Below are positions 2,500 to 32,450 of a DNA stretch of 45,266 bases, piece by piece. The translations under genes were made by a program, and so were the position numbers. Under the pieces are notes generated by a model that did no database searches, had not been told where the DNA came from, and worked only from the letters and a program-made list of their open reading frames with translations. Source of the DNA: Craspedostauros australis (lineage: Eukaryota); contig JALAGF010004746.1 of the NCBI GenBank assembly GCA_030167865.1, positions 1-45,266 of the forward strand, in the 5' to 3' direction. Every line of letters starts with the position of its first letter. Positions within the stretch are counted from its first letter, which is position 1.

Positions 2500-3273
2500 A
2501 TGTCATCCACGCCAACATCACCAGTTCAATCGCCGGCCGCTTCGCCGACGATGTCTCCACGCCCGTCGCCGTCGCCCACACGATCGGCGACGACAGCGAA
2601 GACAGCGACCAAAGCGCATCCCAACAACGAACGCAAGAAGCAGGCCGTGCTCAACAAGTTCCTCACGAAGTCGTACCACATGATCGATCAGTGCGATCCA
2701 GAAATCGCGGGGTGGTCAACCTCGGGAGACAGCTTCACCGTGAGGGACGTGGAGAGCTTCGAACGCCAGGTGCTGCCGCAGTACTTCAACCACTCCAAGT
2801 TCTCCAGCTTCACCAGGCAGCTCAACTTCTACGGCTTCCAGAAGATCAGGCTGGATGCTGACCTGCAGCGCAACAACTCCTCTGTCCGGTTCTACCACGA
2901 GAACTTCCAACGCGGCAAGCCAGATCTGCTGCAGAAGATCAGCCGCACCACCGCCAAGGTCGCCATCCAAGCAGCATCGTCCAACGATCAGATAGAGGCC
3001 CTCAAGACTGAGGTGGCGCAGCTCCACGAGCAGCTCCATGACCTCAACAACAGACTGGATGAGAGAGTGGACATGATGGCAGCGGCAATCAAGACGGACT
3101 ACGCCATCCGCATGCAGAAGATGGAGGCGGCATACGCCGACCTTTACGCCTCCATGATGCTGCGATCTGCCCCCATCACTATCGCCTCCTCGCCCGTGCT
3201 GACAACCACAGCGCTCCCGAAGACAATGAAATCAGAAGACATCGCCAGATACCTGCGATCGACACGAGCATGA
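2500..3273 (+). CDS. HSF: heat shock transcription factor (HSF DNA-binding domain plus coiled coil), 257 aa
   Basis: FLTKSYHMID..IAGWS..GDSFTV..VLPQYFNHSKFSSFTRQLNFYGFQK..FYHENFQRGKPDLLQKISR is the HSF DNA-binding signature. A heptad region follows (IEALKTEVAQLHEQLHDLNNRL). ATG at 2500 was chosen because the upstream part of ORF 2308 is A/C-rich, UTR-like sequence with a GTG start. Confidence 0.95.
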   Translation: MSSTPTSPVQSPAASPTMSPRPSPSPTRSATTAKTATKAHPNNERKKQAVLNKFLTKSYHMIDQCDPEIAGWSTSGDSFTVRDVESFERQVLPQYFNHSKFSSFTRQLNFYGFQKIRLDADLQRNNSSVRFYHENFQRGKPDLLQKISRTTAKVAIQAASSNDQIEALKTEVAQLHEQLHDLNNRLDERVDMMAAAIKTDYAIRMQKMEAAYADLYASMMLRSAPITIASSPVLTTTALPKTMKSEDIARYLRSTRA

Positions 3274-6926: not shown

Positions 6927-7682
6927 TGTTGTTGTTCTTGTTGCTTTGCTACTGTCAATGCTGCTGTTGGTCTTGGTCTCTGGAAGTCGGTGGTGGACGT
7001 GTCGTTCGGGCAGTGGGAACAATGGTGTGATGCGCTCTGGGTGCACCTGAGGAACATGTTGTCATGTGTGGTTATCGCAAAAAATGTTGTTTTGGTTTGG
7101 TTGGTTTGTGTTGGTCTGATGAGAATTGGTCGAAGTAATCGATAATGTGCAAGTGACTCACTCATCAACAAGACTGAGCCTCCACGGGTTAACGGTTTCG
7201 GTTACTTTCGGGAAACAACCGATGTTTCCAATTCGCCAAAATGACGAGATGAAAGACCAAGGACGAAAGACAACGATGAGTAGCGACGACAACGATGAGC
7301 AACGACAAGAATGTAGCACGAACAAGCAAACAGGCGAACTTCCACACGAAAGCAAAGCGACAAGCAAGATCCTCGGGCAGACCGCAGCAGAGGCACATCC
7401 CAACACCTGTCCTCCTCGGCACGAGTAGCGTATTCAGCTGCAGCATCGTGCCTACAACCAACCAGTGCTTGTGACATCTCTTCGCCGTCCGAGTTGCACA
7501 TCTCTGATCAAACCAGCAACAGAGGAGACCAGCAACGGAATCAAGAAGGATCCGCATTGCATTGAATCTCGGTGCATCGCATTGGAAACTTGTTGACAAG
7601 CCAACCTCCTGCAAAGCACAGACCGCATTGCGCAAGGAAGCATTCGCACGACTCCAGCGGAGTTACAAGCAACATAGCCACC

Positions 7683-10379: not shown

Positions 10380-12374
10380 GCGTCTCATACGTATTGGTTG
10401 GTTATTGGTATGCGTGATTGAGCTGCTGCTTCCATCGCCGTATCAATGATACCACTGCTGACAAATTTGAACGATAGCAATGACGGCGGCGGTGTGATGA
10501 CGAATAGCGACGACCTCATGAACACATCCCCATGTTATTGATGGAAGGAGCGAGAGCAAGCACCAGTCGAGTTGAGAGGTGGCGAGAAATGAAGCTGGGC
10601 CTTGTTCGTCTACCGCAGAATGAGGTTGAACTTGAGTAATGGAGATGGTATGTCTACTATAGAGAGCGATTGTCATCTGAACACGACCCCATCCCTTCAT
10701 TTGTGTTGCTTTTGTTGCTCTCCTTCTCTTGCTGCAACATGATATTGAGGTCAGATTTATGGTGGTGGAAGATGAGGATGGAGTAGCTGGTTGCGTCGCG
10801 AAATGTGTTGTCATGTCCGTGCCGCTTTGCAGCATGGCCGAATGATCAGGTTCGACCTTGTCCTCTTCAACTCACACAAGGGCACGACCACGACCACAAT
10901 CGTCAGGCAACGGATCTGTACAGACGTGTGGCACATGCATCCGCAAAAGGTCTGTAAAGTACTGACCGGGAGGAAAGCCAACGGCGGCCTCGAGGCGTTC
11001 TGCGCACAGCGGATGTCCATGGCAGTGAGGAAGAAGCAGTAAAAAATGGAACTGATCAAGGAGGTTCCACTGTTGGGGATGGTGCCGAAGAGGTGATTGT
11101 CCAACAGCACAGACGATGAATTTGGGGACCCGTTGATGCTGTCGTCCCCCTCTGTTGCAATTGCCTTCATTCATCTCTTGACGAGTTTGCCGCTGTGCGT
11201 ACACAACACAACCATTGGTGGGTGGTATTCTATTATGATGCACCATTGATGCTGTCAGTAATCGCATCATGCGAGAGGAGGCGAAGTGATGTACGAAGAT
11301 GAAGCGAGGAGAATGTTATGCCCCAGTTTGGCGTTTGCGGTATTATGACCATTGACGTTATCGCCAAAAATGAAAAACCTTACGAAGTGACAAAAGGTGG
11401 AAGCTGATCGATTGTTTGTTCCGCCTTGTGGGCGTGCTGGTAGCACCATGCGAAGTGGTCGTAGTTCGCGGATGCCCGCAGCGGGTGGTTGTGCGCCACA
11501 TTTGTGTTTTGGTTGGACTATTCCGCCGTTGACGTGTTGTGCGGGGCAGCTGGCGTGGGTCCCTTCTGCGTTACTTTGTGTTGTGGCGTGTTACGTCACG
11601 TGCGACATCAAAAGCGTTTCTCCGCCGACGAATCTTCGGCGCACTCATTCCGTCGCGTTCCAGAACTGTGGGCGAATCTCCTCCTTTGTGAAATTTCAGC
11701 TGTCACACGTTGCGCGAAAAGCACAGCCAGCGCCTTGTTCTCCCATGTCCAACAGTCGATGAACAGGAAGACAGCAACAGCGGATGAAAACAGAGTCACC
11801 AAACTCGTACCCAACATACTCTGCTCTACGAGCTACTCTATTGGTGTTCGCCCACCAAACCAGACGACTCTCTGGGAGTAGAGTATTGATCGGCGTTGCC
11901 GCAGACTGACTTCTGACGAACGATACCAGCACAGATACCAGCACAGATACCGGAACAAGCACCCAACACTCAACACTCAACACTCAACACACGACATTCA
12001 CCATACCCAACAAACGAGTACGGCTTTGCGAACGTCCAAACAAGGCACATGTTCTACATACCATACGAGTAAAGAGCAAGGAAACGTTCATACTCAGAGA
12101 GCAAGAAGGAAGCAACAACTTACTGGACGCTACGAGCTATCGAAGGCCCCGTGTACGCAAGGACGCTCTGCACTGAAAACTGCAACAACGCCACAACGGC
12201 CTATTCGTCACTAGACGGTCGTTGGTCCCATCGAAGGCTCAGGCGTCCACACATCGAAAGGGTTAGTGAAGTCGCCGCTGCTTAGGAGCATCATCACATT
12301 GCAATTGCCATTGCCATCACTATCATTGTTTTTGCATTGATGCGCATGTTGCTTGTCCAAAGTCAGGAAGGTCC

Positions 12375-14732
12375 ATGATGAAGACGGCTGATGACGGTGA
12401 AACATACTCACCCAGTCGCTCTTCGAACGCCACCCAGCACACAGCGCTCGGTGACAGCAGTCCACAGCACATGACGTTCAAGAGAAGACGATCGAGTCAA
12501 CAGAGTGCGGCGTTGGTGTTCGATACAGACCAGAACGACATCGACTCCGTTCAGCCATCCAGCGTAGTTGGTCGCTCAGATAGCACGGTGGTAAGCAGTG
12601 GCAGCGCAAGCATGGGTTCTTCGAAACGATTGAAGGCAGCATCTGTCCGTTCCAAAGCTGATGATGGAGGGGAAGATTCAAAGCATCAGCACAATCGGGC
12701 TTCGTCTGAACAGTTCCATGGTCCCCATGAGATCTATTCGCCACATGAACAGAAGCAAGATCAGCAACCGCAACATCAGCAGAGGCAACAGATCCAACAG
12801 CAGGAGCAGCATTCAACACAGAATGAGATGCTCGATCATGAGACTAAACAAAACATGGAAGCTGAGATGCCATGGTCGCAAGAACTGCACAAATCGTTTG
12901 TGGATGCCATCTTCGAAGTTGGCATGATCCATTCGTCGCCGTCCGTCATTGCGGAGAAGATGCAGACAAAGCCGACCAACCTCACGAGCGAACGGCTCAA
13001 ATCGCATCTGCAGAAGTTCCGACAATCCCGGGACAAAGAGAAACGCAAATTCATGGAGGAGTACGAATCGAATCTGCACACCTTTCGGCAAATGAGATCG
13101 ATACTGTTCACCGATCCCGGCGCCACGCGCTCCATGCTGGGTAATCAGGGCAAGATACTCGGTGGGAAGCTGCCTGCCTTCCTCACGCACATCGTGCTTG
13201 AAGAAGCCAGGTCTGTGCGGCGCAGCAAGATGATCGCTGCTGCGACATCATCGCCAGAGATGATGCGGCAGATTCCACAGCAGATCAAGACATTCACAAC
13301 AACCGATGGGTCTCAGTGTGCCTTCGTTCCTTTTCCGAACCTCACAGAGGCCGAGACAGAGGGGCATCTGGGGGCTTCGTTGACTCTCGTTCGCGGCTTG
13401 ATCCAGAACATGGGCGCCTTCTTGCTCAATCAACGTAGTTCGGATCTGAGCTTCCATAACGCCCATGCAGGCCAAAGGCCGCAGCAACGACAGCATCAAC
13501 AGCATGGGCGTGTACCTTGGCCTCCTTCACATTCACATTCGCGTTCGTCATTGCCGTTGCCACTGTCACTACCACCACCATCACTACAACAGCGATCGCA
13601 AGATTCACAGAGCCCACGGCAAGCAAAACGATCTGGGCCTTCGCATCTCATGCGCGTATCCGAGCATGAACATGTAGAGTCACAGGAGCGTGTTGCAGAA
13701 AGCTCGAGCATTGGCGGCGATGGCAACAGCAGCAGCATGACGAAAGGCATCGACTATCGCTTGACAAATCGAATAAAGGCGGACGCTTCCCCAGTTACCG
13801 GCGCTGTTGCTTCCTCCTCTCCTCATGGCAGTGCAAAAACGCCACGCAACTCACCACAATCGTTGCCCTGGGCTGCAGACTCTTCGCAGCAAGCCAATGC
13901 CATCACAAAACCATTGCAAATGCCCGGTACTTCTGGCAACATCTTGCATCCTTCGTCTCTGCGGGAGACTTTTGTTCCACCCAAAACAACACACCTGCTA
14001 TTGGACTATCACAACCACCAGAAGCAGCCAACACTGCAACCAACTCAAGCAGGGCGTGTACCAGATCGCAGCGAACAAGAAGCACAAGGTCAGACCGAGG
14101 TAACAAAGCCAGATGATGAACACCACGGCCTGATTGGAATGCAGCCACACGATTCAGGGTTGTACCACCATCCGTATCTGAATCAGCGGCAACCACATCA
14201 CACAAGACGTGCCTCCACTTCTTCCTTGCCAATATCAACGTCAATGTCAATGGCTAGATATCATGCCCACAATCATCAGTACCCAAACCTTGGCAACCGG
14301 TTGCTATCAGATGCACTCAATGTGAGCATGCAACAAGATGCAAGTGCTGGCATGCTATCATCAGAGCATGCATCTCAACCATACCCTCGCAACCACGCCA
14401 GACGCATGTCTGATGTAATCAATGCCGCCGGGGGCCGAATATCGATGGCAAACAATCATGATCAAAATTCCCGTCCGCTCAAGAGGCAGGAATCGGATGA
14501 ATTCCCCCACCTCGGACAAGCCTCCTATCGGCAACTCGATGACGCAATGCAAAGCTTGCGTGGCTTGTCACCTCCGCCCAACCGTGATGACTCAGGATCG
14601 GAGGCATCTCAAAACCATGAGATATCACCCCTCACATTTCGGCCCATGATGCTGACACACGAGGGAATGCCATCTTTGCCAGCGTCACCAAGAAAGCACG
14701 AAGACTCAGGACAATCAGATGACGAAAAATAG
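12375..14732 (+). CDS. GARP / SHAQKYF-class single-repeat Myb transcription factor, 785 aa
   Basis: MPWSQELHKSFVDAIFEVG..SPSVIAEKM..LTSERLKSHLQKFR (~12865-13025) is the GARP signature. The rest is Q/S/H-rich low complexity. The 5' end is not verified. Confidence 0.88.
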   Translation: MMKTADDGETYSPSRSSNATQHTALGDSSPQHMTFKRRRSSQQSAALVFDTDQNDIDSVQPSSVVGRSDSTVVSSGSASMGSSKRLKAASVRSKADDGGEDSKHQHNRASSEQFHGPHEIYSPHEQKQDQQPQHQQRQQIQQQEQHSTQNEMLDHETKQNMEAEMPWSQELHKSFVDAIFEVGMIHSSPSVIAEKMQTKPTNLTSERLKSHLQKFRQSRDKEKRKFMEEYESNLHTFRQMRSILFTDPGATRSMLGNQGKILGGKLPAFLTHIVLEEARSVRRSKMIAAATSSPEMMRQIPQQIKTFTTTDGSQCAFVPFPNLTEAETEGHLGASLTLVRGLIQNMGAFLLNQRSSDLSFHNAHAGQRPQQRQHQQHGRVPWPPSHSHSRSSLPLPLSLPPPSLQQRSQDSQSPRQAKRSGPSHLMRVSEHEHVESQERVAESSSIGGDGNSSSMTKGIDYRLTNRIKADASPVTGAVASSSPHGSAKTPRNSPQSLPWAADSSQQANAITKPLQMPGTSGNILHPSSLRETFVPPKTTHLLLDYHNHQKQPTLQPTQAGRVPDRSEQEAQGQTEVTKPDDEHHGLIGMQPHDSGLYHHPYLNQRQPHHTRRASTSSLPISTSMSMARYHAHNHQYPNLGNRLLSDALNVSMQQDASAGMLSSEHASQPYPRNHARRMSDVINAAGGRISMANNHDQNSRPLKRQESDEFPHLGQASYRQLDDAMQSLRGLSPPPNRDDSGSEASQNHEISPLTFRPMMLTHEGMPSLPASPRKHEDSGQSDDEK

Positions 14733-16021: not shown

Positions 16022-17113
16022 ATGGAACAACTGCAGTATATCCAAGATCACACCAAGTGCCTCTGCTGCCTCAAGGCATTCCACTTCCAACCAAAAGCCG
16101 ACGTTGACACCATGCAACATGGACAAGGGTTACACTGTCACTCGGCTGTGCCCTCGGATGCATCTCGCACATGTGGCATGGATATGAAGCGCACGAAACA
16201 GAGTGGCACCACCGGCTCTCACCGGTATCAGCGCACCGCCAATCATGCGCGTGGCATTCGAGAGGCCATGGCATCGTTCAAGGCCAAGCACAAGGCTCGA
16301 CGTAAGAACATCGGGACCAAGACTAACAAGAAGATCAAGAACAAGAGCGACAGCAGCAGGAACAACAAGAGCAATAACAGGAACGAACCGACCCAGCCTC
16401 GATACCCCGTGACTTCATGCGCTTGCAATCACATCATCTGCAAGCCATGTCTCATTCAACATGATGCACAATCCGCCAGCAACCGCGATGGACGCAGTCG
16501 TACATCATCTCGGTTCATGGCATGCCCACTGTGTCATGCTGCGAAGGCATTTTCCAAACGCCTCACGCTCGACCAATCCCTCATGGATGGGTTGAAGGAC
16601 ACGAGCATGTGCGCAAGCGAAGTTGTGATCCCGGCAAACAGCTTTGGTTCCATCTCCGGTGTTGGCCAATTGGGTGCGCACAGCGGACATAGCGAGATCA
16701 AGGCAGCATCCAAGACCCGATCGCAATCCGATGATGCGGTCAGCGCTGATGCCGAAACTAACTCCGGAACAGACAGTGGTAAGGGAAGCATTGACAGCGG
16801 CTCTTTCCGCAAGGGGTACTTAACGGTCGGGAATGATCCAATGAGCGTCCCATTGACGGCATGGCCGAATGTGCTGAATCGTGTCAATAGCATGTTCCGA
16901 GACGAAGGCCGTGGTAGTCCTCTGGTTGGAGCTGAGAATAAAACGAAAGCGAACAATGAGGAGGCAACAGAGACGATCGCAACAGTTGCTCCGTCCACAA
17001 TGCCTGCGCTGTCGGAATACAGTATGATCTTGCGGTTGAACATGTTGCATGACATGATCCGCTTGGGTGTGACGCAGAACACGGAGTTGTATTCTTGTGC
17101 GCAGGCCCACTAA
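16022..17113 (+). CDS. RING-HC-like zinc finger protein with long loop insertion, copy 1 (363 aa)
   Basis: CLCC ... CACNHIICKPC ... CPLC. It is paralogous over its whole length to 37790-38767, with the same start MEQLQ(Y/F)IQDHTKC and the same end LRLNMLHDMIRLGVTQNTELY. Confidence 0.78.
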   Translation: MEQLQYIQDHTKCLCCLKAFHFQPKADVDTMQHGQGLHCHSAVPSDASRTCGMDMKRTKQSGTTGSHRYQRTANHARGIREAMASFKAKHKARRKNIGTKTNKKIKNKSDSSRNNKSNNRNEPTQPRYPVTSCACNHIICKPCLIQHDAQSASNRDGRSRTSSRFMACPLCHAAKAFSKRLTLDQSLMDGLKDTSMCASEVVIPANSFGSISGVGQLGAHSGHSEIKAASKTRSQSDDAVSADAETNSGTDSGKGSIDSGSFRKGYLTVGNDPMSVPLTAWPNVLNRVNSMFRDEGRGSPLVGAENKTKANNEEATETIATVAPSTMPALSEYSMILRLNMLHDMIRLGVTQNTELYSCAQAH

Positions 17114-17444
17114 ACACAGGATAAGACGCAACACGGATAGGGCGCCGTGCTTTACATGTTCGTATGACCGCCCGAGACGACGACATTGCAACGACTAGCA
17201 ACTAAATGATCCACGCTACTAATATTCTTGAGTATCGTGAAGGGAAGCAAGCACACGATGCGTGAAAAAATGAAACTATATTCTCTCCAGAGGACTGCAA
17301 GATTCTCTCTCTGCTGTGGCAAGTTTCGCATTGATTCGCACAATATGTAAACAGATACTTAATTGTTGCAATGCTACTTTTTAGATACTGGTATGCTCTC
17401 CTCGTATGTCTATGGTATGGAATGGTACGAACGAAACCGTACCA

Positions 17445-20400
17445 TCACTTCTTGTTCGCCTTGACGCGCGCCTTGCGTTGGATTTCTCGGTTCTGCGCCA
17501 TCTTCTTGTCCAGCTTGATCTTGGCGAGCTGGCTCCGGATATCCAATCCCAGTTTCACCAGCGTCGTGTTCCCGCCAAGCAGGTCACACAGTTCGTCCTC
17601 CGTCGCAGAGCTTGTGGGCTTCGACTGGTGGCGTATCTGCAATTCGATGACGGTGGAATTCTTGGACATGCTGGCCATGATCGCGCTGAGGCCTTCATCA
17701 GCGATCGCGTTGCTGTCAAGCAGAACTCGCTCGATGGTGCTGTTGGATTCCAGAGACTTTGCCAGCGCGACCGCGAACTTGCAATCCAGCTTCAGCGTGC
17801 TCATTTGCAAGGTCGTGACATGGGTGTTGTTCTCGAATGCCGCGCCCGACTTGACCTTCTCTTCTTGATTCAACGACAAGAACCGGTTGTTGCCGACAAT
17901 CTCCACATCCGTGATTTCAGGATCGTTGGCAGCGATCTTGTCAAAGTACTGTTCCATCTCGTTACGCTTGCGCTCTTGCAGCGTCCCGGTCTTGATGGCG
18001 TGATGCCGGCGCGCCTGTCGTAGGAAGTCCACGTTGCGTTGGATGTACTTGTTGATCTGTTGCCGTTCCAGGAGATTGCGGACGCGCAGGCTGAATCGGA
18101 CGACGCTGCGGTTCACGCACAGCGCATGCGCCAACTTCAGCTCGGCCTTGCTGCTGAGCAACGCCTTCTGATTCTCCAGTCGCAGCACCTGCAGGTACTG
18201 GAAGGTGGTGGGGCTGCCAACGCACTTGGCGATTGCCACGGCGCCCTTCTCGGTGATGAAATTGGTCTCAACGTTGAGCGTGTTCAACTTTGGTAGCATC
18301 TTCTCATTCTCAAAGCAACGGTCGGCCAGGGCCTCGAAGAAGTCGTTGTCGCAACATGAGTTGGCCATGTTGATGCTGATGATGTTCTTCATCTGCGGAT
18401 GGCTGAGCAAGGCATCGACAAACTTCTTGACAATGAGAGGCCGGGCCGGGTCGGTCTTGGGGAAGCGCTTGAATAGCTTGAACTGATTGCAGAAATCAAA
18501 CACGAGCGATCCCTTCTCTTCTTTCTCCACCAGGAAAGACGAGATGAATTCCTCATCCAGGAATTCTCCGTCGGCGGTCATCGGCATCGCAAAGCCAGTG
18601 GTGCTGGCGGTGTCCATGGATTTGCCGTCTGACGATCCGCTGTACGCGCGGCTGGGTGCACGCCGACCCGTGGAACCGGCCTTGCTGGCTGTGCCATCAT
18701 CGTCGTCGTCGAGCACGACCATATCGCCCAGCTTGTATTTGTCAAAGAGCTGGGAGAGTTCGTAGAGGTATCCCCAGTCGTCGTCCTTCACGACCAGGAT
18801 GGTTTCCTCCGCCTTGCGCTGTTCAAAGAGCTCCTCCGCACGTTCCATCTCGAATTGGAGGAACTTGAGCAGCTGGTCGTCACCAGCCACTGGCGATTTG
18901 TTGGCGTTTTTGTTGCGTTCCACGAACTTCTTGAGACGCTTCGGTCCGGTCTTGGTCTTGAAGTCCAGAGAGAATTGCTTGACGATGTCGTTCTGCTCCA
19001 ACGCCTCGAATACCGACTCCTCTGCATTTTCGAAGATGGGGGAGTTCTGCTTGCTGAGCTCCACCTTGAGGAGGGACTTGTTGGATGGCATGGATTGACA
19101 GAACTCGATGAGCGCGTCGTTCGTGAAGCTGTTGTTCTTGAGGTTGATCTCGCGTAGCGTGAAGTTGGTCTCGATGCTGGTGGCCAACGACGAAAGGAAC
19201 TGGTTGCCCAGATCCACGCCCTGGATGGAGATCTTGGTGATGTGAAGGTTGGATCGCAGCGACTCGGCGAAGGCATCGACGAGGGCCTTGGAGACGTGTT
19301 CGAAGCGAGGATCCGTGTCCACGATGATCTCCGTGACGGTCGGGTCATTGTGAATGGCCTTCGTCATGTTGCTGACGAGGTCGTTGTCTCGCACCGAGAG
19401 GCGTCGCGTGACCGGGAATCCGCCCGCGTTGTCAATGCGCTCGATCAGCCCGCGCACCATGTCCGACTTCGACTTATCCTTGAGCTTGTCGACCGCCGCC
19501 TGTGCACGTGTGTCGGTGGAGGCATCCGTGGACGTCTTGGTGAGGAGGTTGGCGTTCTTCTTGGGAGGCGGGGTTCCGGCATTCTTGTTGGTCGAGGTGT
19601 ACTTGCCAGGAGTATTGGGTTTGAAGTGCGACGCGCCCTTCAACTTGCCGACCTTGCTGGGCGTACCTCCACCGAACGGAGTCGTGGTCTGTGATTTGAA
19701 GTCGTTGGCTTTCTTGCCGATGGAGCCGATCTTCTTCGCTCCCTTCTTCTTCTTGGGCGACGGGGTGACGGTCTTGGTCTTCCCAAACGGACTCGACCCC
19801 TTGATGCTTCCGACCTTCGATTTCTTTATCTTGCCCGGCGATTTCGTGGCACCGTTGGCAGCCGAAGGAGATCCAAATTTCTTGGCCTTGACAAAGCCGC
19901 CTGTCGTCTTCTTGGGCGTCGGTGATGTAGATTTAGATGCGGACGCTGAATTCTGAAACGCAGCCGATCTGTCCTTGAGAGTCTTGCCACCGCTGCCATT
20001 GCCGGTTGCCTTGGACGCTCCAAACTTGCTGGCGGCGGGCGAGGAAAATGTTTTCTTGCTAGGCGATGACGTCTTACTGGGCGATGGTGTCTTGGCACTG
20101 CTGCTGCTGCTGCTGGCACCGAATGGTGATGCCTTGGACTTCAATGATCCGACCTTTTTGGTTTTGGGAGAAGGTGTCACTGCATTGGACTTTGCTGCTG
20201 GTGACCCGGCTGCCTTTTGGAACGCAGCGCTGCGCGACTTGAGGCTGTTGCCGTTCGATGTTGTGGGACCAGCGTTTGATTTGTAGCTGTTTATCCGGTC
20301 TTTGATGCTTCCGGTCTTGGGACTGGCACCACCAGCAGCTGCACTAACACCACCTGCAGCCTTGAGATCGGTCTCGTAGTCCTGTAGCTTGCTCTGAAGC

Positions 20401-20507
20401 TTTTTGTAATCTTTGTGAGTTATTCCCTTCTCGGCCTTCGTGTCCTCCATCATTGACTGGATCTTCTTGATCTTCTTCTTCAGGATGCGGGGCGAGTATT
20501 CCACCAT
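17445..20507 (-). CDS. 1020-aa protein with K/S/P/G-rich repetitive N-terminus and three tandem tropomodulin/leiomodin-type LRR domains
   Basis: There are three units (~18900-19350, ~18000-18500, ~17445-17945). They carry Tmod LRR hallmarks NDP..E, LAxxLxxNxTLxxLNLxxNxI, LNTLNVETNFITEKGAV, ELQIRHQSKP..E..LCDLLGGNTTLVKLG and the end helices RNVDFLRQARR / QNREIQRKARV. Start placed at MVEYSP (20507), because the upstream ORF part crosses (GATAC)n repeats. Confidence 0.8.
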   Translation of the reverse strand: MVEYSPRILKKKIKKIQSMMEDTKAEKGITHKDYKKLQSKLQDYETDLKAAGGVSAAAGGASPKTGSIKDRINSYKSNAGPTTSNGNSLKSRSAAFQKAAGSPAAKSNAVTPSPKTKKVGSLKSKASPFGASSSSSSAKTPSPSKTSSPSKKTFSSPAASKFGASKATGNGSGGKTLKDRSAAFQNSASASKSTSPTPKKTTGGFVKAKKFGSPSAANGATKSPGKIKKSKVGSIKGSSPFGKTKTVTPSPKKKKGAKKIGSIGKKANDFKSQTTTPFGGGTPSKVGKLKGASHFKPNTPGKYTSTNKNAGTPPPKKNANLLTKTSTDASTDTRAQAAVDKLKDKSKSDMVRGLIERIDNAGGFPVTRRLSVRDNDLVSNMTKAIHNDPTVTEIIVDTDPRFEHVSKALVDAFAESLRSNLHITKISIQGVDLGNQFLSSLATSIETNFTLREINLKNNSFTNDALIEFCQSMPSNKSLLKVELSKQNSPIFENAEESVFEALEQNDIVKQFSLDFKTKTGPKRLKKFVERNKNANKSPVAGDDQLLKFLQFEMERAEELFEQRKAEETILVVKDDDWGYLYELSQLFDKYKLGDMVVLDDDDDGTASKAGSTGRRAPSRAYSGSSDGKSMDTASTTGFAMPMTADGEFLDEEFISSFLVEKEEKGSLVFDFCNQFKLFKRFPKTDPARPLIVKKFVDALLSHPQMKNIISINMANSCCDNDFFEALADRCFENEKMLPKLNTLNVETNFITEKGAVAIAKCVGSPTTFQYLQVLRLENQKALLSSKAELKLAHALCVNRSVVRFSLRVRNLLERQQINKYIQRNVDFLRQARRHHAIKTGTLQERKRNEMEQYFDKIAANDPEITDVEIVGNNRFLSLNQEEKVKSGAAFENNTHVTTLQMSTLKLDCKFAVALAKSLESNSTIERVLLDSNAIADEGLSAIMASMSKNSTVIELQIRHQSKPTSSATEDELCDLLGGNTTLVKLGLDIRSQLAKIKLDKKMAQNREIQRKARVKANKK

Positions 20508-23263
20508 CTTTACTGTCACCTTGTTGGTGTTGTGTGTATCTATAGTGCGGGGAGTGTCACAATATGATACTATTGAGTGGAGTACGGTATGGTATGGGAT
20601 GATACGATACGATACGATGGATGGAGCACTCGCACTCGCACGAAAACGAAGACGAGCACGAAGACGAAGTTGCCCAGCCTTCTCCACTCTTCACTTGACT
20701 TGGCTTGACTTGACGTCGAGTCTTTGGCAATGCCGAAGATGCTGAAGATACGTGAAGGCAGCCAATCTTGTGATCAATCGGATGATCGTGATCAAAGTTT
20801 GAGGACACTACAGAGAATGGTACAATGCTTCAAGCTCTTCTTGCACCAACTTCGCAGGCCTCCGCTTTGAGATCTCTGACTCCGTTCCACTGCTGCTGGC
20901 ACTCCACTCTTGGTTGCGTTTTCGATCGTTGGCGTCGTCAGTGCCACCACCAAACGTACTCGAATAGAGTATGGTACAATCGGTGCTTTGATGATGATGA
21001 CGACCAGCTTGCTCTGAGCTCGTTGCTCGCAGCTCGTGTGTTGATACCGACGCTGATGTTCTGATGTCCGTGCCAATACCGATGCCTCCAACAGTCCAGA
21101 GAGGGAGTGAGTGCCGTGTCAATCCAGTGACTCCTCGTGTGATTCCACGATGACCTCTTGTGCTCTATCCTCCGTTCTCTCGCTCTCGCACTCTCACATT
21201 GGCGCGAGCTACTGGCGTCACTTTCTTGCCCATACCTTCCTCTGCGACCATCGCACAAAGGGAGGTGTCTTGCCGGTACCCACACGCCAAAGCCATTGGG
21301 ACTTTCTTCCGCCGCCGGCGGGTGCAAAAATCCGGATCGGATTGGGTGTGTGACCTTTTGCCAAAGATACCATTTGCTGATGAGTCATGATGGTCGTGAA
21401 ACTGACCACTTTGACCACAAGCAATGACTTCAACCATGTCGGTCTTGTTTGTTCGTGTTTCATGGTCCGACCTGCGTACGTGTGGCGGCTTATGTTGACA
21501 TTTTGAGATGCAGTTGGTGGTCGCGTGAGAGAAAAAACGTGTCACCAATCTCTGTTTGTTGTTCTGCGAACAGTTTTTGTCATTGGTCGGTGTCTCGACA
21601 TTCCCAAAGAGTTGGGAGACCTCTGTGTGTTTTGGCGTGGGTGTTGGCGCGGTACAGGCAAGGTGATCAACGATGTGCTCCATGTTGTGCGGGCGACAAG
21701 GCTGGCGACGATGTGAGGAGGGGATGATAATGACGATGATGCTTCCTGCCGAAGGCTGTGTGGGGAGGGGAGCAATACCATAGACGTTCGGATACCTCAT
21801 ACCGGTACGACTATGAGCCGTGGGCTGCCTGGCAGGCCCCGTTGGTCGAAATAGAAGCCTACTGAGCATGGAACGAGGGCGGGACAGTCTGGAGAGAGAA
21901 CAAGGGAGAACCATGCCACTTTCACACTGAGTGAACGGCCTCCCCAGACGGCACCGTTTGACATACCTCGGTTTTGCCACAACGATGCACGAAACAGAAG
22001 GCATTCCGACCACGCGGGGGAGCATGTTCTGTACCTCTCAACGTGCCTATGGCAGCAGAGAGCGCTGTCTGGAACCGTCTTCGTGAATGGTATTGTTGGC
22101 ACTTGTCGCAGTTTCTACTTCCATCGTCTTCTGAGTTGACGGCCAAGTCAGTTCGAAGTTGGCTGTCGGGTCTGGTTGTTTCTTCCCATGTCTACGTATC
22201 CCAGTGTTAATCATGGTGGATAGAGCGGCTGCCACGAAGGCCTTCCGCAGGTCGAGCGCGCAGAAGAGCACGACATTCATTTTTCTGATTGCGCTGACGA
22301 TGGTGGAATCTGTATTCGCGAAACATAACCGCGTCCAGCAATGCCTGGTGGTGGTCTTTCGGGCCCTTCTTCCGACTTTCGCCTCCAATCGAAACTCCCC
22401 TGCTCTGGGTGTCTTGTGGTGGGTGGGCACTCAAGGCTCCCTCCCCTCTCTCTGTTGGTGTGAGGTACAAGAATAAAGAGCAGCAGCAGGGGTATGTAGC
22501 AGAGTAAGTAGCAGAGCAGGTGAGGCCGTCACCTCTGCGACGCTGTTCGTTGTTGCACGAATTGGACACGTTCTCCCGCAGAAATGAATGCGGTTGGGGC
22601 GTTGCAGCGTTCGTTGGGTTGGATCCTGGTCGCTGACCTCCAATTCCTTTTTACTACCTATCGTGGAAGGCTGGATCGCACTTAGCCTTCCCACGTTTTC
22701 GACCTTCGTGGTCTCTGTTTTGGGAATGTCCCAACCTCTTCCTCTTGACACCTCGTTATGTAGGTATGTCCACTGAAGCGGCGGGACGTGCAGCATCCGC
22801 TTCCTCAGCAATCAGCGGTGGGATGGTGCCGAAATGCGAACGTGGACTTTTGAGTCCGGGTCCAGTGGATGACGTGATTGCAAAACAAACATGAAGGGAG
22901 AGCATCAAAGATCGACCCGCCAATGCACACGTGGCCGTGCTTTCTATCCTGAACTTTTCGACTCTTCAATTGTTTGTTCTGTTGTGGCTGTGGCTGGCTA
23001 CACATCTGTCGTGGTTGGCCGTTGCTGCTCTGTGCGCCACCCCATGGCTCCTGCCCCAAGCACCACCATCGCCGCGCTCACTTTTCGTAAAACCGCCCTC
23101 GTGTGGCCACAACAAACGAAAGACCAACCTGGGACAGCTGCATCTTTCAATTGGTACAGCGAACATATCATCATCAGCATCTGCGCCTCCTTCGTCACAC
23201 CAAGTGCCAGTATTGCATTGTACTGAAGTTGACAAGTTGGTACCGTCCGCCTTGATTGCACAC

Positions 23264-25061: not shown

Positions 25062-26504
25062 CTATCTCGGACCCACAGCGTACGACGATGGCAACGCAAA
25101 GTTGGGACCATCGTCTTCGGTATCTTGAAACTGCTGCTGCTGCGGTTCGCCAACCCGCATGACGTTCATGCCGCCATCGCGCACGACGGTGCTGCGCTTG
25201 GCCTTCTGGATCATGTGGGCCGAGGCCAGGATCTTCTCGACACCTTCCGTCGTGACCAGTCCGCCCTCCATCTCCTCCTTTTGCTCAGCATCCTCGAGAC
25301 GGATGCGCCTTCGCTTCTTGGCGAGGCGGCACAGGCAGAAGAGTGCCATGGCGCTCATGACGAGGAGGGCGGCGCCGGCGAAGCGCAGGGCGTTGGGTGG
25401 CACGTTGGATTCGAGGTCGTTGGTGTAGTACTCATCATCGTAGCCGTCGTCGTTTTCCGTGACAGTGGTGTTCTTGACGAAGACGTCGGCCTCGTTGCCC
25501 GGTATGCTGAGCTGGGTGCCTGGGTAACGGGTCTTGAGGCTCTTCTCGAGCTCTCCGGACTTGATGTACTTGTCGAGGGTGAATTGCGTGGAGGTTGTGA
25601 GACGCAGCAGAGCCTCGTCCTTGCGGGTCTTGTCTCCATCCTGAATGTGCTCCTGGTCCACGTCGACCACGGGGTAGCGCAGGGTCCAGGCCGTGTACCT
25701 GATGCTGGCGCTGGTCTGTCCCGGATCCACGACCGCGAAGGGCGTCTTGAGGATGGCGGAGCGGTCTCCGGCGATCTCGCCGAGGTGACGGCGGGCGTTG
25801 GCATCCTGCAGCGATGCCGTTCTTCTTCGAGCCTGCGTGCAGATGTCTACGTCGGTGGTGGAGATGGACTCGTAGAGCTCGAAGTCCCCGGTCTCGCAGA
25901 GGACCTCCTGGAAGCTCTCGATGAGGCCCTTGGAGAGGACGACGTCAGCCTCGGCCGGATCGACGTCCTCGTTGAAGATGGAGACCCTGAGGGCCATGTC
26001 ACCAACCACGGCGGCGCTGTACTCCGTGGTGGGCGTTGAGGTGGGCAAACCGGTGGGTTCTGTGGATGGCTGGACCGTGTCCAGCGTGGTTGGAGCCGAT
26101 GACCTGGTGATGGATGGCTTGGACGTTGGCATGGAGGTGGGCGTTAATGTGGGAGCGCCGGTGGGCTTGTAGGAAGGAGAGGTGGTCGGAAGCAGCGTCG
26201 GCGAGACGGTTGGCAGGTCCGTGGGGGACGCTGTTGGGTTGCTGGTTGGCATGCGCGTTGGCCTCCTGGTCGGTCGGCTTGATGGAGAGCCCGTTGGGCG
26301 ACTTGTGGGCCTGCTGGTTGGTCGTTGGGTTGGGGAGCTGGTGGGAATCGTTGTGGGGGTGCTCGTCTTGTCCTTGTCATTCTTCTCATCCTGGGGGTCG
26401 TCGATGACCTCATCCTTGTTTTCCAGCACAATGTCCTTGTCATCCTCCAGGAATCGCACTGCGTCGTCCCTGTCTCCGTCTCGTTCTCTGCCTGCTTGCG
26501 TCAT
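25062..26504 (-). CDS. type I membrane protein with PT/PS mucin-like tetrapeptide repeats, extracellular globular domain, single TM helix and cytoplasmic tail (5' end uncertain)
   Basis: About 25 PTxx/PSxx units (PTSSPTQRPTSRPTSRPTGSPSSRPTRR...). TM segment ALRFAGAALLVMSAMALFCLC is followed by the stop-transfer RLAKKRRRIR. No signal peptide is visible, and there is an in-frame stop just upstream of the ATG. Confidence 0.72.
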   Translation of the reverse strand: MTQAGRERDGDRDDAVRFLEDDKDIVLENKDEVIDDPQDEKNDKDKTSTPTTIPTSSPTQRPTSRPTSRPTGSPSSRPTRRPTRMPTSNPTASPTDLPTVSPTLLPTTSPSYKPTGAPTLTPTSMPTSKPSITRSSAPTTLDTVQPSTEPTGLPTSTPTTEYSAAVVGDMALRVSIFNEDVDPAEADVVLSKGLIESFQEVLCETGDFELYESISTTDVDICTQARRRTASLQDANARRHLGEIAGDRSAILKTPFAVVDPGQTSASIRYTAWTLRYPVVDVDQEHIQDGDKTRKDEALLRLTTSTQFTLDKYIKSGELEKSLKTRYPGTQLSIPGNEADVFVKNTTVTENDDGYDDEYYTNDLESNVPPNALRFAGAALLVMSAMALFCLCRLAKKRRRIRLEDAEQKEEMEGGLVTTEGVEKILASAHMIQKAKRSTVVRDGGMNVMRVGEPQQQQFQDTEDDGPNFALPSSYAVGPR

Positions 26505-27852
26505 GGTCAGTATTGGTGGTGATTCGATGGTCGCTCCGTGGTTCAGTCAGAGTATGTGGTAGGGCAAGGGGAGGCAGAGCGGTGCTTGTACTCGACCCAG
26601 CAATGATCTCTGAGAGTCAGCAGAGATTCAGAAATGAGGCAATGCTGCGGCTTTTGTGTGATGTGTGATGGCACCTCGTTCTGCCGTCCTTCCAGTTGCG
26701 TTGCGTTGCGTTGCTTCCCTGTTGGGGGCGTTCCTGCGTCTGTCTTTGTGATCAGAACCCTGCAAGTGACGATCGTTCGTCCCTTCGTTTGTTGGTTGCT
26801 TGATCGATTGATTGGTTGGATGTTCTGCTTCCGCTTTCTTTCAATGGGATGCACAATGCTCAAAGATGCTTTCGTCGCTCGACTCAGGTCCGCCGTCTTT
26901 GCTTGACTTTGCTCGGCCAATGCTGCTTGCCCTTCGATGGAGATCGATGCGGCTTGGCTTCACTTGGAGTCGATGCGGAGTGGTGTGGAGTGATGTGGAG
27001 TGATGTGAAGTGGAGTGGGATGGAGGCAATTGATTTCAACTGAGATGATCCAGAGAAGTTGAGCGGGTTGAGCCGACTTCGTTTGTGTTTGGGTTGAATC
27101 GGACTCGCTTTGGCGCTCTCGTCTCCACTCACATGAACTGCACACAAATCAACGAAGGACGACTACTTTTGGTGGCAACAACGCGCACGCCAAAATTTCA
27201 AGAGTTGTGACGGTTGACCCATCCAACACACTTTCTCATGTTGTTGGAACGCGCCGTGCCGAACGTGCGCGTTGAGTTCCAGCCATTTAGCAGCAACGAC
27301 CATGTACATCCGTTATAAACGGTTATTCCGTCTTTGGTGTAAGATTCCCACGAACTCGCAACCGATACGTAAAACGTGTTTCGAAGTACCTCGAGTCACG
27401 GATAGTATAAACTCACAATAGGAGTCTAGACTGACAAGAAGCGATTGCTTTGAACACAACAACGACGATGAACACGTTTTGGATCCACGATACGAGTACG
27501 AACGCCAACACATCAACAACCAACTCAACACTTTTGGGGCAAAACAGAACCAAGGCGCCACCACCATGGCCGATCAGAGTCAGCAGCGTCAACATCTCGC
27601 TGACTGGCCATCACCGTTGCTCTTGGTTGCCATTGAAGGAGTGGAGTATTGGTAGATAGTATAATACGATCTGTTCTGGGTTATATAATATTCTATTATA
27701 ATACGATCTACAGCATCCTCGTCTACTCGTACACACGAAGTCGAGAGCAAGCAGTGCCACAGGCCATCCATCGCTATCCGCCACACAATTTCAAGCCAAA
27801 CACACGCACAGCCACACGCACAGCCACACGCCAGATACACTATTCCGCAACC

Positions 27853-28380: not shown

Positions 28381-29624
28381 AGTTGCGCTGGGTATCGCAA
28401 TCACAGCTACCATGCATATTGCCTACCCGTATTGCCACGGTCAGTCGATGGGCGCAATGGACACTGCGCTCGTTTCCTTCCTGCAAGCACAAACCCTTCG
28501 CTTTGCTCCATTCTGCGAGCACGTCACAGCAACTGGTCACGAACCAGCGAACGCAAAACAGTGTGGATTTTAAGAGGAACCAGCACGATCAGCGGATCGA
28601 TGTGGATGGCATGGAGGGCAGAGACGAGCGCGTTGGACAGAGTTCCTTCGTCCACCAGCATGTCGATCAATTGGTTCTTGAGATTCCAGCTACAATGACC
28701 AAGGACCCTTTATGGGTAGAGCACGACCTACTTACAAACAGTTGCCTCCCCGAGAGCATTGATACCTATTTTAGGCAACGAACTTGTGGAGTACTCGGTG
28801 CTCCATGCTTTCATGAAAATCAGATCCGTTGTCGCATTCATTCGTGGACTTCAAGCTGTTGTGCTTTGAACGAAGACCGCGGCATCGTTACCATTCTCGC
28901 ACCAGCACCATCCAACTTGCTGTCCACACCAAATTCATCAAGGCACCCTTCCGCTGGGGAGTCTACAGCGTATCCTTCTTCCTGGTTGCCGCTGCTGGTG
29001 TCGCGCACTTTGGCGAGATTTGAATTTCTTTTGCAGCTGTGGATTTGATGAGAGACGTGGCGAAGAAACCATGCTCCGGATTCTGACGTCCTGTCTGGTG
29101 TTCTTGCCCATCGCCGTGATCGGTTGCATGTCGAACAACTACCTCATTTTCTGCCTGGGCATACTGGGATTTGTGGTTGAAGGTGCCGTGGTCGTCCTGC
29201 GTATCGCAAGGCACTCGCCCAACCTTGTGCAAGGGCTACTAGTGTTGTTGATAGTCCTGGTGCTTGATCTGATCGACGCATTCATCCTGCGCAAATGGAA
29301 TACCATCCCAGCCAGGATCGTCAATTGGTCCAGCCGATGCGCGGAATGGACTGCTGCTGGACGAGGAGGCGGGGCTGACTCGAGTTCCGCATCCCTGACT
29401 CTCCACTCTGCGTTGTCCATACATCATAAGCTAGCCTTATTTTTACCTCAGTTCCTGTCGGATATTTTATTATTTGAGAGAGTATGTAGAGCAGAGCAGA
29501 GAGAAGCATTTGTGTGCTGTCTCTTGTTTTGGTTGATGCACTGCCAACGCCAGCCCACACAGTATGTGTTGCTCAATCTATCGTTGCATCACTCATTTCT
29601 CTGCACGCCACCGTGTTCTACCTA

Positions 29625-32450
29625 TCAACGATAAAAGTTGGGCGAGGACATCGGGATGGGGCTCTCTTCCGGCATCGCCCGTTCACCTCTGCGCGAGGAT
29701 TTCGTTGGCGTGGATGCGATAGATGCCGAGCAGAGACTTTCATCACCGGGCGACATCTTCAATCGCTTGGAAGAGATGGTGGCATGCTGCTTACGATCAT
29801 TTTCGTTCGCGCACTTGAATCTGGCCGGTGTGTTGGTTGCATCACCATCGATGTTCTCGCTGCTCCTGTTGTTGTTCTCGCCGTCATCATCGCTGTCTCC
29901 GTCTACGTCACTCTCCTGCGTACACCGAATGGGGTACATGGAAAGATCGTCGTTGCGCCCTGGTATGTTCGCATCTCCCCGGCTACTCTCGCTATCGTAC
30001 CCAGCGACTCCCCTGCTTACATCACCATGATTGGAATTCCCATCATCGCTGAGATCGTAATCGAATTCAGGCGCTGGCGTGATCTGCAGACCGCCCACGG
30101 CATTGACACCACCATCGCTCTTGCGCTTGAGCCCGCTTGCTGTCGAGGTGGCGGCGCTATCTTGCGAGCGCGCAGCGACGTCGGGGCACCCCAGCTGCTC
30201 ATCCAGCTGGTTTTGCCAGTCTTCGCAGACGTGGCGCAGGAGATCGACCTTCTCCGGCGTGCGGCAGTAGACGCGCACCGCGCACTTCATGTGGGATTCC
30301 GGGATGACAGAGCGATGGTCCTTTTCGTCCACGACCTCCGCGAGTGGCAGATCGTCCAAGGACGATTTGCGATTGAGATTGGTTGCGCGGCCCACGAATC
30401 TCAGAAGGGACAGCGGGTTCTTGTTCTTGTTGCCGTAGTGTATGCACACTCTCTCGACCAGGATATCTTGCTTGGTCAGCTGGATGATGACGCCTTCGTC
30501 ATTGCCATCCGCGCGGCCTACCTTTCGGCGACCTGCGCCGGCGTGAGTGGGAACACCGCGCCCAGCACCGCTGCTGCTGCCTGGCACACGATGCTTTCCG
30601 CGAATGCGCAGGAGGTCCCGAACGATCTCCACCGTGGGCGCATCCCACAGCTTCTTCGCTCGCTCGTCGTCCACGTCGACGATGCGCTCGGCAGCGAACT
30701 TGTAAATGTCGTGACGGTCCAACCGCTCAACGAGATCTCGCGCGGCCTTCATCTCTGGCCGTTGGTCTTCGCGAATCAATGCGAGGATGTTGTCATCGAG
30801 CCGCTGGTAGGAATCAGGATCGGCACACGCACGGCTGATGGGCATGCCATTGTACAGCATTTTGGTATCAGCGAGTCGCAGGATGTCGCACATCATGGCC
30901 GACGCCGCCTTGACGGTCTTGTGCTGGTACACCGTTTCGTGCATCTTGAAGCGTTCTTGGAAGGCACCCAGAGCGGATGCCACGTGCTTGATTGGGTAGC
31001 AGATCATGCAATGGGTATCTGTCGGGGCACCGGGCTCGGTGGGGTAGCAACGCAGACAGCTCGGCTTGGAGCATTTGGCCCTCGCTACGATGGCATCATT
31101 GATGATGGGTATGTCCACGTTTCCGGACACGCCGAAGGCGCGACGCTTATCGCGCGCGAAATAGTCGAGCTTGTCCACGTCGAGGCCGCTGTGCTTGTTG
31201 GCAACGATATCATACAGCCACTCCTTGTGCGACTCCATGCGGCCGATGCATCCCGTTGTGCCCAATTTCTCCTTGGCTTCGGGGATTGGTCCACCCAAGA
31301 TGCATTCCTTGACGAAGATCCAATCCCGCGATGTAAGGATGTTTTCATCAACGGCTCTGTGGTGATTGTGGTTGCGGCTGCCAACGCTGTTGCTGCCAAC
31401 GCTTGCATTGACGAACATGGATGCTCCAAACACCTTCATGGTGTGAACGTCAACACCATCGCCAATCTGCTTCAACGGTTTATCCAACGCCTCCCATCGA
31501 TAGTCGATGGCCATGCCCAAGTCCGCCAACGCGGCATCGATCATCATGAGGGACGCACTCTCATGGGTCCATCCCTTGGGAATGTCGTCAAACCGTTCGT
31601 ACTCTCGCCGGACCTCAGGATCAAGCTCGATCTCCTCATTGACGCGACTCCGGAACTGCTCGTAGAGATGCGATCCCGGACCGTGTCCAATGTCATGCAG
31701 CAGGCCCGCCAAGGTGACGCACAGGACGTCCTTGTCGGTCGTGCGCAAGTTGGGCTGATGAAATTGGATGCGGCGCGCCACCTGACGCGCCAAATGCGCG
31801 ACGCCCAACGAGTGCTCGAATCTCGTGTGGTTGGCACAGGTGAAGACGAGAGCTGCCGGACCCAGCTGCTGGATGCGTCGCAGTCGCTGAAAGCGCTTCG
31901 TGTCGACCAGCGCCTTCATGACGGGACACATGTCGATCGTCTGATGCACCTCGTCGTTGGTGCGCGTCAATTTGGCATCCGTGAGCTGCGTGAGCTTGAA
32001 GGGGCGCTGCTTCAGATGGTCGTGCGGCTGCGACATGGATTGGGACTGCGTGGCCACATGCGGTTGCGACAATGGCACGCGGCCGGCGATCTGCGGATGC
32101 GCCTCCGCATCGAAGTCCCTGTCGAGCGAGAGACGCGAATTCTCGAGAGGCGCTCTCTGCGAGTGCGTTCTGGCACGCGGCACGCCTGCGTCGTTGAAGG
32201 CGCGTTGGCTGCGGGCTGCCGCAGGTGGCTGGTGGTTGGGCGGAGCCTTGCGATTCTCCTTCTGGCCCAACGCATGAGCTGCTCGCACAGACTTGCGCTG
32301 CGCGTTGGATGCCTTGCTGTACGGGTTGTGGACGGCCGTGGACACTGCCGGAGCGGGCTTGCGATCGTGCTGCGTGCGGCATTCGGATGCCCTGTCCTCT
32401 GCGCCGCTTGATTGGGTCTGGGGCATGGTCTGTTTGTCAGGAAGCGCCAT
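29625..32450 (-). CDS. SAMHD1: SAMHD1-like HD-domain dNTP triphosphohydrolase (no SAM domain), ~941 aa
   Basis: NDEVHQTI..LVDTKRFQRLRRIQQLG..ANHTRFEHSLGV..AGLLHDIGHGPGSHLYE..WTHE..LYDIVANKHSGLDVDKLDYFARD..RFKMHETVYQHKTV all align with the SAMHD1 catalytic core. Start placed at MALPDK (32450); the ORF is open to 32876. Confidence 0.92.
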   Translation of the reverse strand: MALPDKQTMPQTQSSGAEDRASECRTQHDRKPAPAVSTAVHNPYSKASNAQRKSVRAAHALGQKENRKAPPNHQPPAAARSQRAFNDAGVPRARTHSQRAPLENSRLSLDRDFDAEAHPQIAGRVPLSQPHVATQSQSMSQPHDHLKQRPFKLTQLTDAKLTRTNDEVHQTIDMCPVMKALVDTKRFQRLRRIQQLGPAALVFTCANHTRFEHSLGVAHLARQVARRIQFHQPNLRTTDKDVLCVTLAGLLHDIGHGPGSHLYEQFRSRVNEEIELDPEVRREYERFDDIPKGWTHESASLMMIDAALADLGMAIDYRWEALDKPLKQIGDGVDVHTMKVFGASMFVNASVGSNSVGSRNHNHHRAVDENILTSRDWIFVKECILGGPIPEAKEKLGTTGCIGRMESHKEWLYDIVANKHSGLDVDKLDYFARDKRRAFGVSGNVDIPIINDAIVARAKCSKPSCLRCYPTEPGAPTDTHCMICYPIKHVASALGAFQERFKMHETVYQHKTVKAASAMMCDILRLADTKMLYNGMPISRACADPDSYQRLDDNILALIREDQRPEMKAARDLVERLDRHDIYKFAAERIVDVDDERAKKLWDAPTVEIVRDLLRIRGKHRVPGSSSGAGRGVPTHAGAGRRKVGRADGNDEGVIIQLTKQDILVERVCIHYGNKNKNPLSLLRFVGRATNLNRKSSLDDLPLAEVVDEKDHRSVIPESHMKCAVRVYCRTPEKVDLLRHVCEDWQNQLDEQLGCPDVAARSQDSAATSTASGLKRKSDGGVNAVGGLQITPAPEFDYDLSDDGNSNHGDVSRGVAGYDSESSRGDANIPGRNDDLSMYPIRCTQESDVDGDSDDDGENNNRSSENIDGDATNTPARFKCANENDRKQHATISSKRLKMSPGDESLCSASIASTPTKSSRRGERAMPEESPIPMSSPNFYR

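Follow-up and report, generated by a model that had tools for sequence, protein, structure and literature searches.

The window analyzed here is a 45,266-nucleotide (nt) stretch of Craspedostauros australis DNA (contig JALAGF010004746.1 of assembly GCA_030167865.1, forward strand), and the gene of interest lies on its minus strand, where a frame is open from stop to stop at 17445..20690 (1081 codons). Within it an ATG-to-stop open reading frame (ORF) at 17445..20507 (1020 codons plus stop) encodes a protein of 1020 amino acids, P0001. The coding sequence is apparently a single exon, and a 706-nt contig of X1, the only public run in which this DNA was found, covers positions 17364-18069 with 0 differences (that this run is RNA is only a guess). 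A first-pass annotation, made from the DNA letters without database searches, had placed at 17445-19350 three tandem leucine-rich repeat (LRR) domains of the tropomodulin (Tmod) type, each closed by a basic helix, in what it took to be a diatom; that span corresponds to residues ~386-1020, which is all three units minus the first ~14 residues of the first. Three complete LRR units with basic closing helices are indeed found by translation, by phmmer searches and in an AlphaFold model. The four amino acid strings quoted in support are all present in the translation (NTLNVETNFITEKG, VLRLENQKALLSSKAELKLAHALCVN and RNVDFLRQARR in the second unit; ELQIRHQSKPTSSATEDELCDLLGGNTTLVKLG in the third), and the diatom origin is borne out by the closest relatives of the protein, which are diatom proteins. 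No tandem DNA repeats were found across positions 17000-21000; the units are duplicates of old date at the protein level, as opposed to DNA repeats of recent origin.

The protein begins with a Lys/Ser/Pro/Thr-rich, disordered N-terminal region (residues 1-371, encoded by 19395..20507 of the minus strand, as are all parts given below) that contains no Pfam domain and is helical in residues 1-50. The first unit, U1 (residues 372-545; 18873..19394), is a Tmod/leiomodin (Lmod)-type LRR domain with its basic C-terminal helix. It is followed by a linker (residues 546-654; 18546..18872) of two conserved helices and then an acidic, Ser-rich disordered loop at 594-638. U2 (residues 655-842; 17982..18545) is the most divergent of the Tmod/Lmod-type LRR domains, and U3 (residues 843-1020; 17448..17981) is the nearest of the three to vertebrate Tmod1. 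An AlphaFold model of residues 360-1020 (47-row alignment, mean predicted local distance difference test (pLDDT) score 86.8, predicted template modelling score 0.66) consists of three blocks, each of five strand/helix repeats closed by a long helix (residues 520-535, 812-840 and 993-1019), and pLDDT values below 50 are limited to residues 594-638. U2 carries a conserved aromatic N-terminal cap and the almost invariant basic C-terminal helix RNVDFLRQARR, which in the model continues straight into U3, and the basic U3 helix stops 3 residues short of the end of the protein. The linker is more than a spacer: its helices lie at about residues 542-570 and 577-590, show the family consensus DWxYLYELxxLFDKxKL, and are followed by a run of Asp and the Ser-rich disordered loop. 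This acidic stretch loosely resembles the acidic region ahead of the Lmod2 LRR domain as it is described in passages of a recent preprint (10.64898/2026.05.14.725239).

The units are matched specifically by tropomodulins and leiomodins. When the whole protein was compared by phmmer with the sequences of the PDB, the top match was chicken Tmod1 (1io0_A; E value 2.6e-17, 65.3 bits), which aligns through U3 (query residues 845-1014 with chain residues 18-184 of 185). Actin-binding site 2 (ABS2) of Lmod1 (4z79_A) matches U3 at E 3.6e-17, and the best match of the U3 region to an LRR protein of the ribonuclease inhibitor (RI)-like class is only 9.9e-6, as against 2.6e-17 for Tmod; the nearest Atlas cluster of U3 is named 'tropomodulin-4-like' (score 0.94, 183 shared features). 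The U1 piece (residues 360-536) also has 1io0_A as its best match (E 1.1e-13, 54.5 bits, chain residues 23-167), and its best match outside the Tmod/Lmod group, ribonuclease inhibitor at E 5.3e-10, covers part of the piece only. The U2 piece (residues 650-842) matches Lmod2 (4rwt_C) at E 2.5e-8 (36.0 bits), and the best protein outside the group is RSP15 at 1.7e-4. These Tmod/Lmod alignments span nearly the whole domain, including the C-terminal helix, which is not itself an LRR.

A structure model of U2 (60-row alignment, pLDDT 95.2) was compared with known structures by Foldseek, a check that the first-pass annotation had proposed, and ranks 1 to 12 are all Tmod or Lmod (E 1.8e-8 to 1.7e-6), followed by NLRP1 (4.2e-5) and CARMIL (9.1e-4). 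VIA-align comparison of the same model with representative structures gives five Tmod/Lmod chains at Z 17.2-17.8, the best being Tmod (Z 17.8, root-mean-square deviation 2.9 over 158 residues), and then NLRP3 at 14.9 and RanGAP and CARMIL at 13.2 each. For U2, Tmod and Lmod thus come first by phmmer, Foldseek and VIA-align alike. Better scores to LRRs of the NLRC3/CARMIL/RanGAP type, which had been named beforehand as speaking against the Tmod assignment, are not seen.

The units of P0001 are less similar to one another than to the vertebrate domains. U1 and U3 score about 46 bits against each other, and U2 scores about 13-15 bits against U1 and U3; the scores of U1, U2 and U3 against vertebrate Tmod/Lmod (54.5, 36.0 and 65.3 bits) are above every one of these sibling scores. 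The old duplicates have therefore each retained the Tmod consensus, suggesting that a common constraint has acted on them, and it is on such pairwise scores that common ancestry of the diatom units and the animal ABS2 rests. We conclude that the units are specifically of the Tmod/Lmod ABS2 type, that the resemblance is far beyond chance, and that it is not a generic likeness among LRRs.

What surrounds these domains is different from the animal proteins. A Pfam hmmscan of P0001 with E values up to 10 returned neither PF03250 (the tropomodulin N-terminal family) nor WH2; the only returns were LRR_6, DUF3829 and Tn7_Tnp_TnsA_C, all under cut-off. (The Pfam copy used apparently lacks the PF27087 model discussed below, and no PF27087 match was returned for P0001.) The protein is therefore not a tropomodulin in the family sense, as it is without the tropomyosin/ABS1 region, is without WH2 and has three ABS2-type domains. 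The ABS2 of Tmod1-4 (PDB 1io0, 4pki and 8f8t) has the same fold, five alpha/beta LRRs closed by a long C-terminal helix whose end is basic, and these proteins provide the top sequence match for U1 and U3 and the top fold match for U2. Tmod has one such domain after the series tropomyosin-binding site 1 (TMBS1)-ABS1-TMBS2, whereas the diatom protein has three after a basic, low-complexity N-terminus that is free of PF03250, and a tropomyosin partner is not expected for it. The ABS2 of Lmod1-3 (PDB 4rwt/5wfn, 4z79 and 9zzj) is the top sequence match for U2 and near the top for U3. Lmod and the diatom protein have in common that capping elements of the ABS1/TMBS2 type are missing and that an acidic stretch lies ahead of an LRR domain, but Lmod bears a proline-rich and WH2 C-terminal extension, and the diatom protein lacks one and ends 3 residues past the U3 helix. 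Lmod attains multivalency with several different actin-binding sites and the diatom protein with repeated LRR domains in one chain. RI-like LRR proteins (RI, NLRP1/3, RanGAP, CARMIL/LRRC16A, DRC5/LRRC34) belong to the same subclass, with alpha/beta repeats of 28-29 residues, but are second-tier matches that align on the repeat core without the capping helices (for the U2 model, Foldseek E 4e-5 to 1e-3 as opposed to 2e-8 for Lmod, and Z 12-15 as opposed to 17-18).

P0001 belongs to a well-populated family. A word-indexed search with residues 360-1020 gave 62 homologues, all with E below 1e-98, that are 36-61% identical to P0001 and align over 97-100% of the query. Three or more units are present in 51 of them: 32 have the U1-U2-U3 arrangement, 18 have a fourth unit and 1 has a fifth, partial unit; of the remainder, 6 have U2-U3 only and 5 are seemingly truncated. 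U1 is conserved in 56/62. Organism names are attached to 11 of the 62 (Mayamaea, Seminavis, two Fistulifera, four Cylindrotheca, a Bacillariaceae metagenome-assembled genome (MAG), Entomoneis and Amphora), and all lineages looked up fall in the Bacillariophycidae, the raphid pennates; the Entomoneis member is filed as Amphiprora. A search for shorter proteins gave 57 matches, 55 of which are family members or fragments, and among them are two-unit forms from Nitzschia sp. Nitz4, Cylindrotheca fusiformis and a Bacillariaceae MAG; the presence of such forms in named diatoms indicates that two- and three-unit paralogues coexist within one species. The family is thus conserved with 2 to 5 units per chain, and every member that carries an organism name comes from a raphid pennate diatom.

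Conservation within the family is highest in the basic helix that joins U2 and U3, where R465, N466, D468, R471, Q472, A473, R474, R487, R489 and N490 (numbered from residue 360) are near-invariant columns; in U2, columns N95, G101, Q126 and E135 are invariant. The named records of Seminavis robusta (P0014), Fistulifera solaris (P0049 and P0052) and Mayamaea pseudoterrestris (P0008) are 45-50% identical to P0001 over 96-99% of residues 360-1020, share its U1-U2-U3 core and are true family members, with one more U3-like unit in Mayamaea and one more divergent unit in Seminavis. Seminavis-type members (P0011, P0013-P0015, P0017, P0019 and P0021) have a degenerate extra LRR unit before U1 (N-terminal residues ~100-250) as well as a divergent fourth unit behind U3. 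The fourth unit of Mayamaea-type members is a close copy of U3, and this difference suggests two separate gains. The N-termini of homologues differ in length and sequence yet carry common short motifs. Those of P0001 include IKDRINSY at residue 68 and LKDRSAAF at residue 177. The motif [LIV]K[DE]R-M/S-A-A-F, often at the extreme N-terminus, occurs in 9/96 N-termini (0.0 expected from shuffles) and (V/P)GKLK..Y/W in 17/96 (0.2 expected), both motifs having been defined post hoc; carriers of N-terminal motifs besides P0001 are P0002, P0004, P0006, P0010, P0026, P0034 and P0057.

More distant relatives were sought by an exhaustive HMMER search with U3, in which 4917 representatives passed a cut-off of E 1e-3 and 75 a cut-off of 1e-30. 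Past the family, this list consists of giant generic LRR proteins that align on the repeat core only and some two- and three-unit proteins (P0128, P0188, P0189, P0118 and P0124 are further two-unit relatives). Names found among 20 distant representatives that were looked up are a Leptophrys vorax transcriptome, Cymbomonas and C. fusiformis. The protein CYMTET_44536 (P0168) of the green alga Cymbomonas tetramitiformis has two tandem Tmod/Lmod-type LRR domains (residues 455-633 and 639-812), which match Lmod2 and Tmod with 83.7 and 82.4 bits (E about 1e-22), more strongly than the diatom units do. It has two units, another N-terminal region and a host from another eukaryotic supergroup; its units score 41 and 58 bits against U3, and the protein is no orthologue of the diatom ones. 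The statement in the first-pass annotation that the domain occurs in single copy per protein and has been characterized in animals therefore needs amendment, as the domain is not restricted to animals and tandem copies are not restricted to diatoms; three copies per chain do set the diatom protein apart from every characterized Tmod and Lmod. A search with P0084, made in view of a sister group, gave 7 matches, namely itself, five generic LRR proteins (Lithocolla, two 'RanGAP' and two others) and a Drosophila 'mucin-5AC' record (P0211), in which Pfam finds only a sub-threshold LRR_1 and no PF03250.

Nor is the family itself new to the databases, as had been supposed: Pfam family PF27087, named LRR_TMOD-LMOD, is precomputed on 62/62 homologues and on 55/57 of the shorter proteins, NCBI records of Seminavis and Fistulifera carry the names 'tropomodulin' and 'tropomodulin 2 (neuronal)', and one paper already uses 'tropomodulin'. 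That public name is misleading, being based on the LRR domain alone, and 'Tmod/Lmod-type LRR repeat protein' is the better one. A description of the multi-domain architecture was not found in the open-access literature searched. With three ABS2-type domains per chain, the architecture shows a known domain in a new arrangement, and in a lineage in which this domain had not been studied.

The neighboring ORFs of the window are ordinary nuclear genes. Pfam scans identified an HSF-type DNA-binding ORF at 2146-3270 (plus strand), a 654-amino-acid ORF at 5100-7061 (minus strand) with SDE2 N- and C-terminal domains and a SPRY domain between them, a PT-repeat protein ORF at 25065-26546 (minus strand), an HD-domain ORF of 1087 amino acids at 29490-32888 (minus strand) and a patatin-like phospholipase ORF at 40123-41079 (minus strand); an ORF of 820 amino acids at 12270-14729 (plus strand) has no Pfam match. 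A choline/carnitine O-acyltransferase at 35212-37300 (plus strand) is split between two overlapping frames that cover profile positions 6-129 and then 133-573, which fits a short intron or a frameshift. A plus-strand frame of 973 amino acids that has no family match overlaps the HD-domain ORF nearly throughout, and is probably a by-product of composition. No actin gene was found among the 39 ORFs scanned of the 42 in the window that are at least 200 amino acids long, the three excluded being the ORF of P0001 and two antisense ORFs that lie within it.

Several readings of these observations may be weighed. LRR proteins cross-match broadly, as the breadth of the U3 search illustrates, so the resemblance might have arisen by chance or from the composition of generic leucine-rich repeats, or the ORF might be no real gene. 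Against this stand full-domain alignments with E values of 1e-13 to 1e-17, high-confidence models, the 62 full-length homologues and the identical 706-nt contig, which together refute such an explanation, and we give it next to no credence. It might also be supposed, from the names that public databases give to the Seminavis and Fistulifera proteins and from the strength of the ABS2-type matches, that the protein is a canonical tropomodulin orthologue that caps pointed ends in a tropomyosin-dependent manner. We regard this as very improbable: PF03250 is absent at E up to 10, the N-terminus is low in complexity, basic and variable among homologues, and three ABS2-type domains are present where Tmod has one. 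In addition, tropomyosin is not known outside opisthokonts.

A more substantial competitor makes the protein an LRR scaffold that binds something other than actin, such as a motor, a small GTPase, or a complex of regulatory or microtubule-associated proteins, the fold having been kept for structural reasons and its surface re-used. LRR surfaces readily switch partners, and several of our own results count against a role in actin binding in the same way: identity to Tmod/Lmod is just about 20-30%; the next-best sequence and fold matches (axonemal DRC5/TCTE1, LRRC34, RSP15 and MOP84A, NLR proteins, RanGAP and CARMIL) are of the same broad LRR class, with axonemal, NLR, RanGAP and CARMIL proteins at Z 12-15 to the U2 model; and PF27087 is precomputed also on proteins of very different annotation, including RanGAP- and NACHT-annotated ones, so that label alone is not specific. 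Also on this side, ABS1 and the WH2 extension are absent by Pfam, as are both tropomyosin sites, and these are the elements that provide the capping power of Tmod and aid Lmod. The restriction to raphid diatoms, for its part, is based on 14 named sequences (11/62 homologues and 3/57 shorter proteins). A Thalassiosira rotula protein annotated with LRR_6 and TMOD/LMOD is placed among chitin-related genes in a preprint (10.64898/2026.07.09.737548). Passages of another preprint report that the Lmod2 LRR domain does not bind the sides of mature filaments (10.64898/2026.05.14.725239), which counts against a simple side-binding bundler. On the other hand, Tmod/Lmod comes first for all three units with a clear gap (for U2 and U3, E differs by at least 4 orders of magnitude; for the U2 model, Z is 17.8 as opposed to 14.9), every unit has kept a greater similarity to Tmod/Lmod than to the other two, and the match takes in the C-terminal basic helix, which according to passages of PMC4571291 and PMC6190845 is part of the Tmod1 actin site. 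On balance we consider the scaffold for another partner a real possibility, with perhaps one chance in a few of being correct, and a multivalent actin-binding protein that works without tropomyosin the better-favored reading, itself evenly poised between right and wrong. Actin binding as such could likewise fall either way.

Should the protein be such a multivalent actin binder, its parts suggest how it might act. A long, basic, disordered N-terminus is followed by a separate U1, a helical and then acidic linker, and a U2-U3 pair joined head to tail by a conserved basic helix. Like the ABS2 of Tmod and Lmod, each LRR domain would sit in the groove formed where terminal subunits of actin meet, and two or three domains per chain, two of them rigidly joined, could hold at least three actin subunits together. 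The outcome might be Lmod-like seeding of filaments, or else high-avidity clamping and stabilizing of pointed ends; the basic N-terminus may bind filaments or membranes non-specifically, or may be a regulatory region. PMC4571291 describes ABS2 alone as the main nucleating element of Lmod, in contact with three subunits, and places the actin contacts of Tmod1 ABS2 in the ascending loops and in the C-terminal helix, as far as Arg-343. That contacting helix has its equivalent in the basic helix between U2 and U3, and we count this in favor of actin binding; in passages of PMC6190845, Tmod1 without its last 15 residues has a disrupted ABS2. Preprint 10.64898/2026.05.14.725239 reports that a single pointed end can take up two Lmod2 LRR domains, one across actins 1-2 and one across 2-3, and this offers a structural reason for having such domains in tandem within a chain.

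The domain type, the architecture, the conservation and the taxonomic pattern of named members are observed here; that the protein binds actin, acts at pointed ends and has to do with the actin bundles of the raphe is inferred. A few published observations are of interest in this regard. The cell-motility section of PMC9724779 reports a Mayamaea 'tropomodulin' (MP_004515-T1) that is up-regulated with actin, myosin, coronin and capping-protein genes; the 62 homologues include one Mayamaea member, P0008 (MPSEU_000456900), which may be that gene. Passages of PMC11420354 state that many diatoms are without Arp2/3 and profilin, and describe the make-up, filament length and polarity of the raphe actin bundles that accompany gliding as unknown. 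One may go further and imagine a raphid-diatom invention that builds or end-stabilizes these bundles, with two or three Lmod-like ABS2 domains of one chain filling the successive grooves at a pointed end (actins 1-2 and 2-3, in the manner of two separate Lmod2 molecules), so that filaments are nucleated or clamped independently of tropomyosin in cells said to be without Arp2/3 and profilin, and with the number of units (2-5) tuning seeding or end stability between species; this is a speculation that we think has a slim, though not negligible, prospect of proving correct.

Tropomodulin and leiomodin have been studied as animal regulators, mostly in muscle and erythrocytes, of the slow-growing end of the actin filament. 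Their actin-binding LRR domain is now seen in diatoms and in a green-algal relative, and in the diatom version it is present in two to five copies per chain, stripped of all tropomyosin-dependent parts. Should actin binding be real, stramenopiles would have in the diatom proteins their first proposed pointed-end regulators, and these would amount to a natural experiment on how ABS2 alone, multiplied in one chain, performs as a nucleator or capper. For diatom biology, the family is a concrete candidate for the factors that assemble and polarize the raphe actin bundles underlying gliding, a question posed in PMC11420354.

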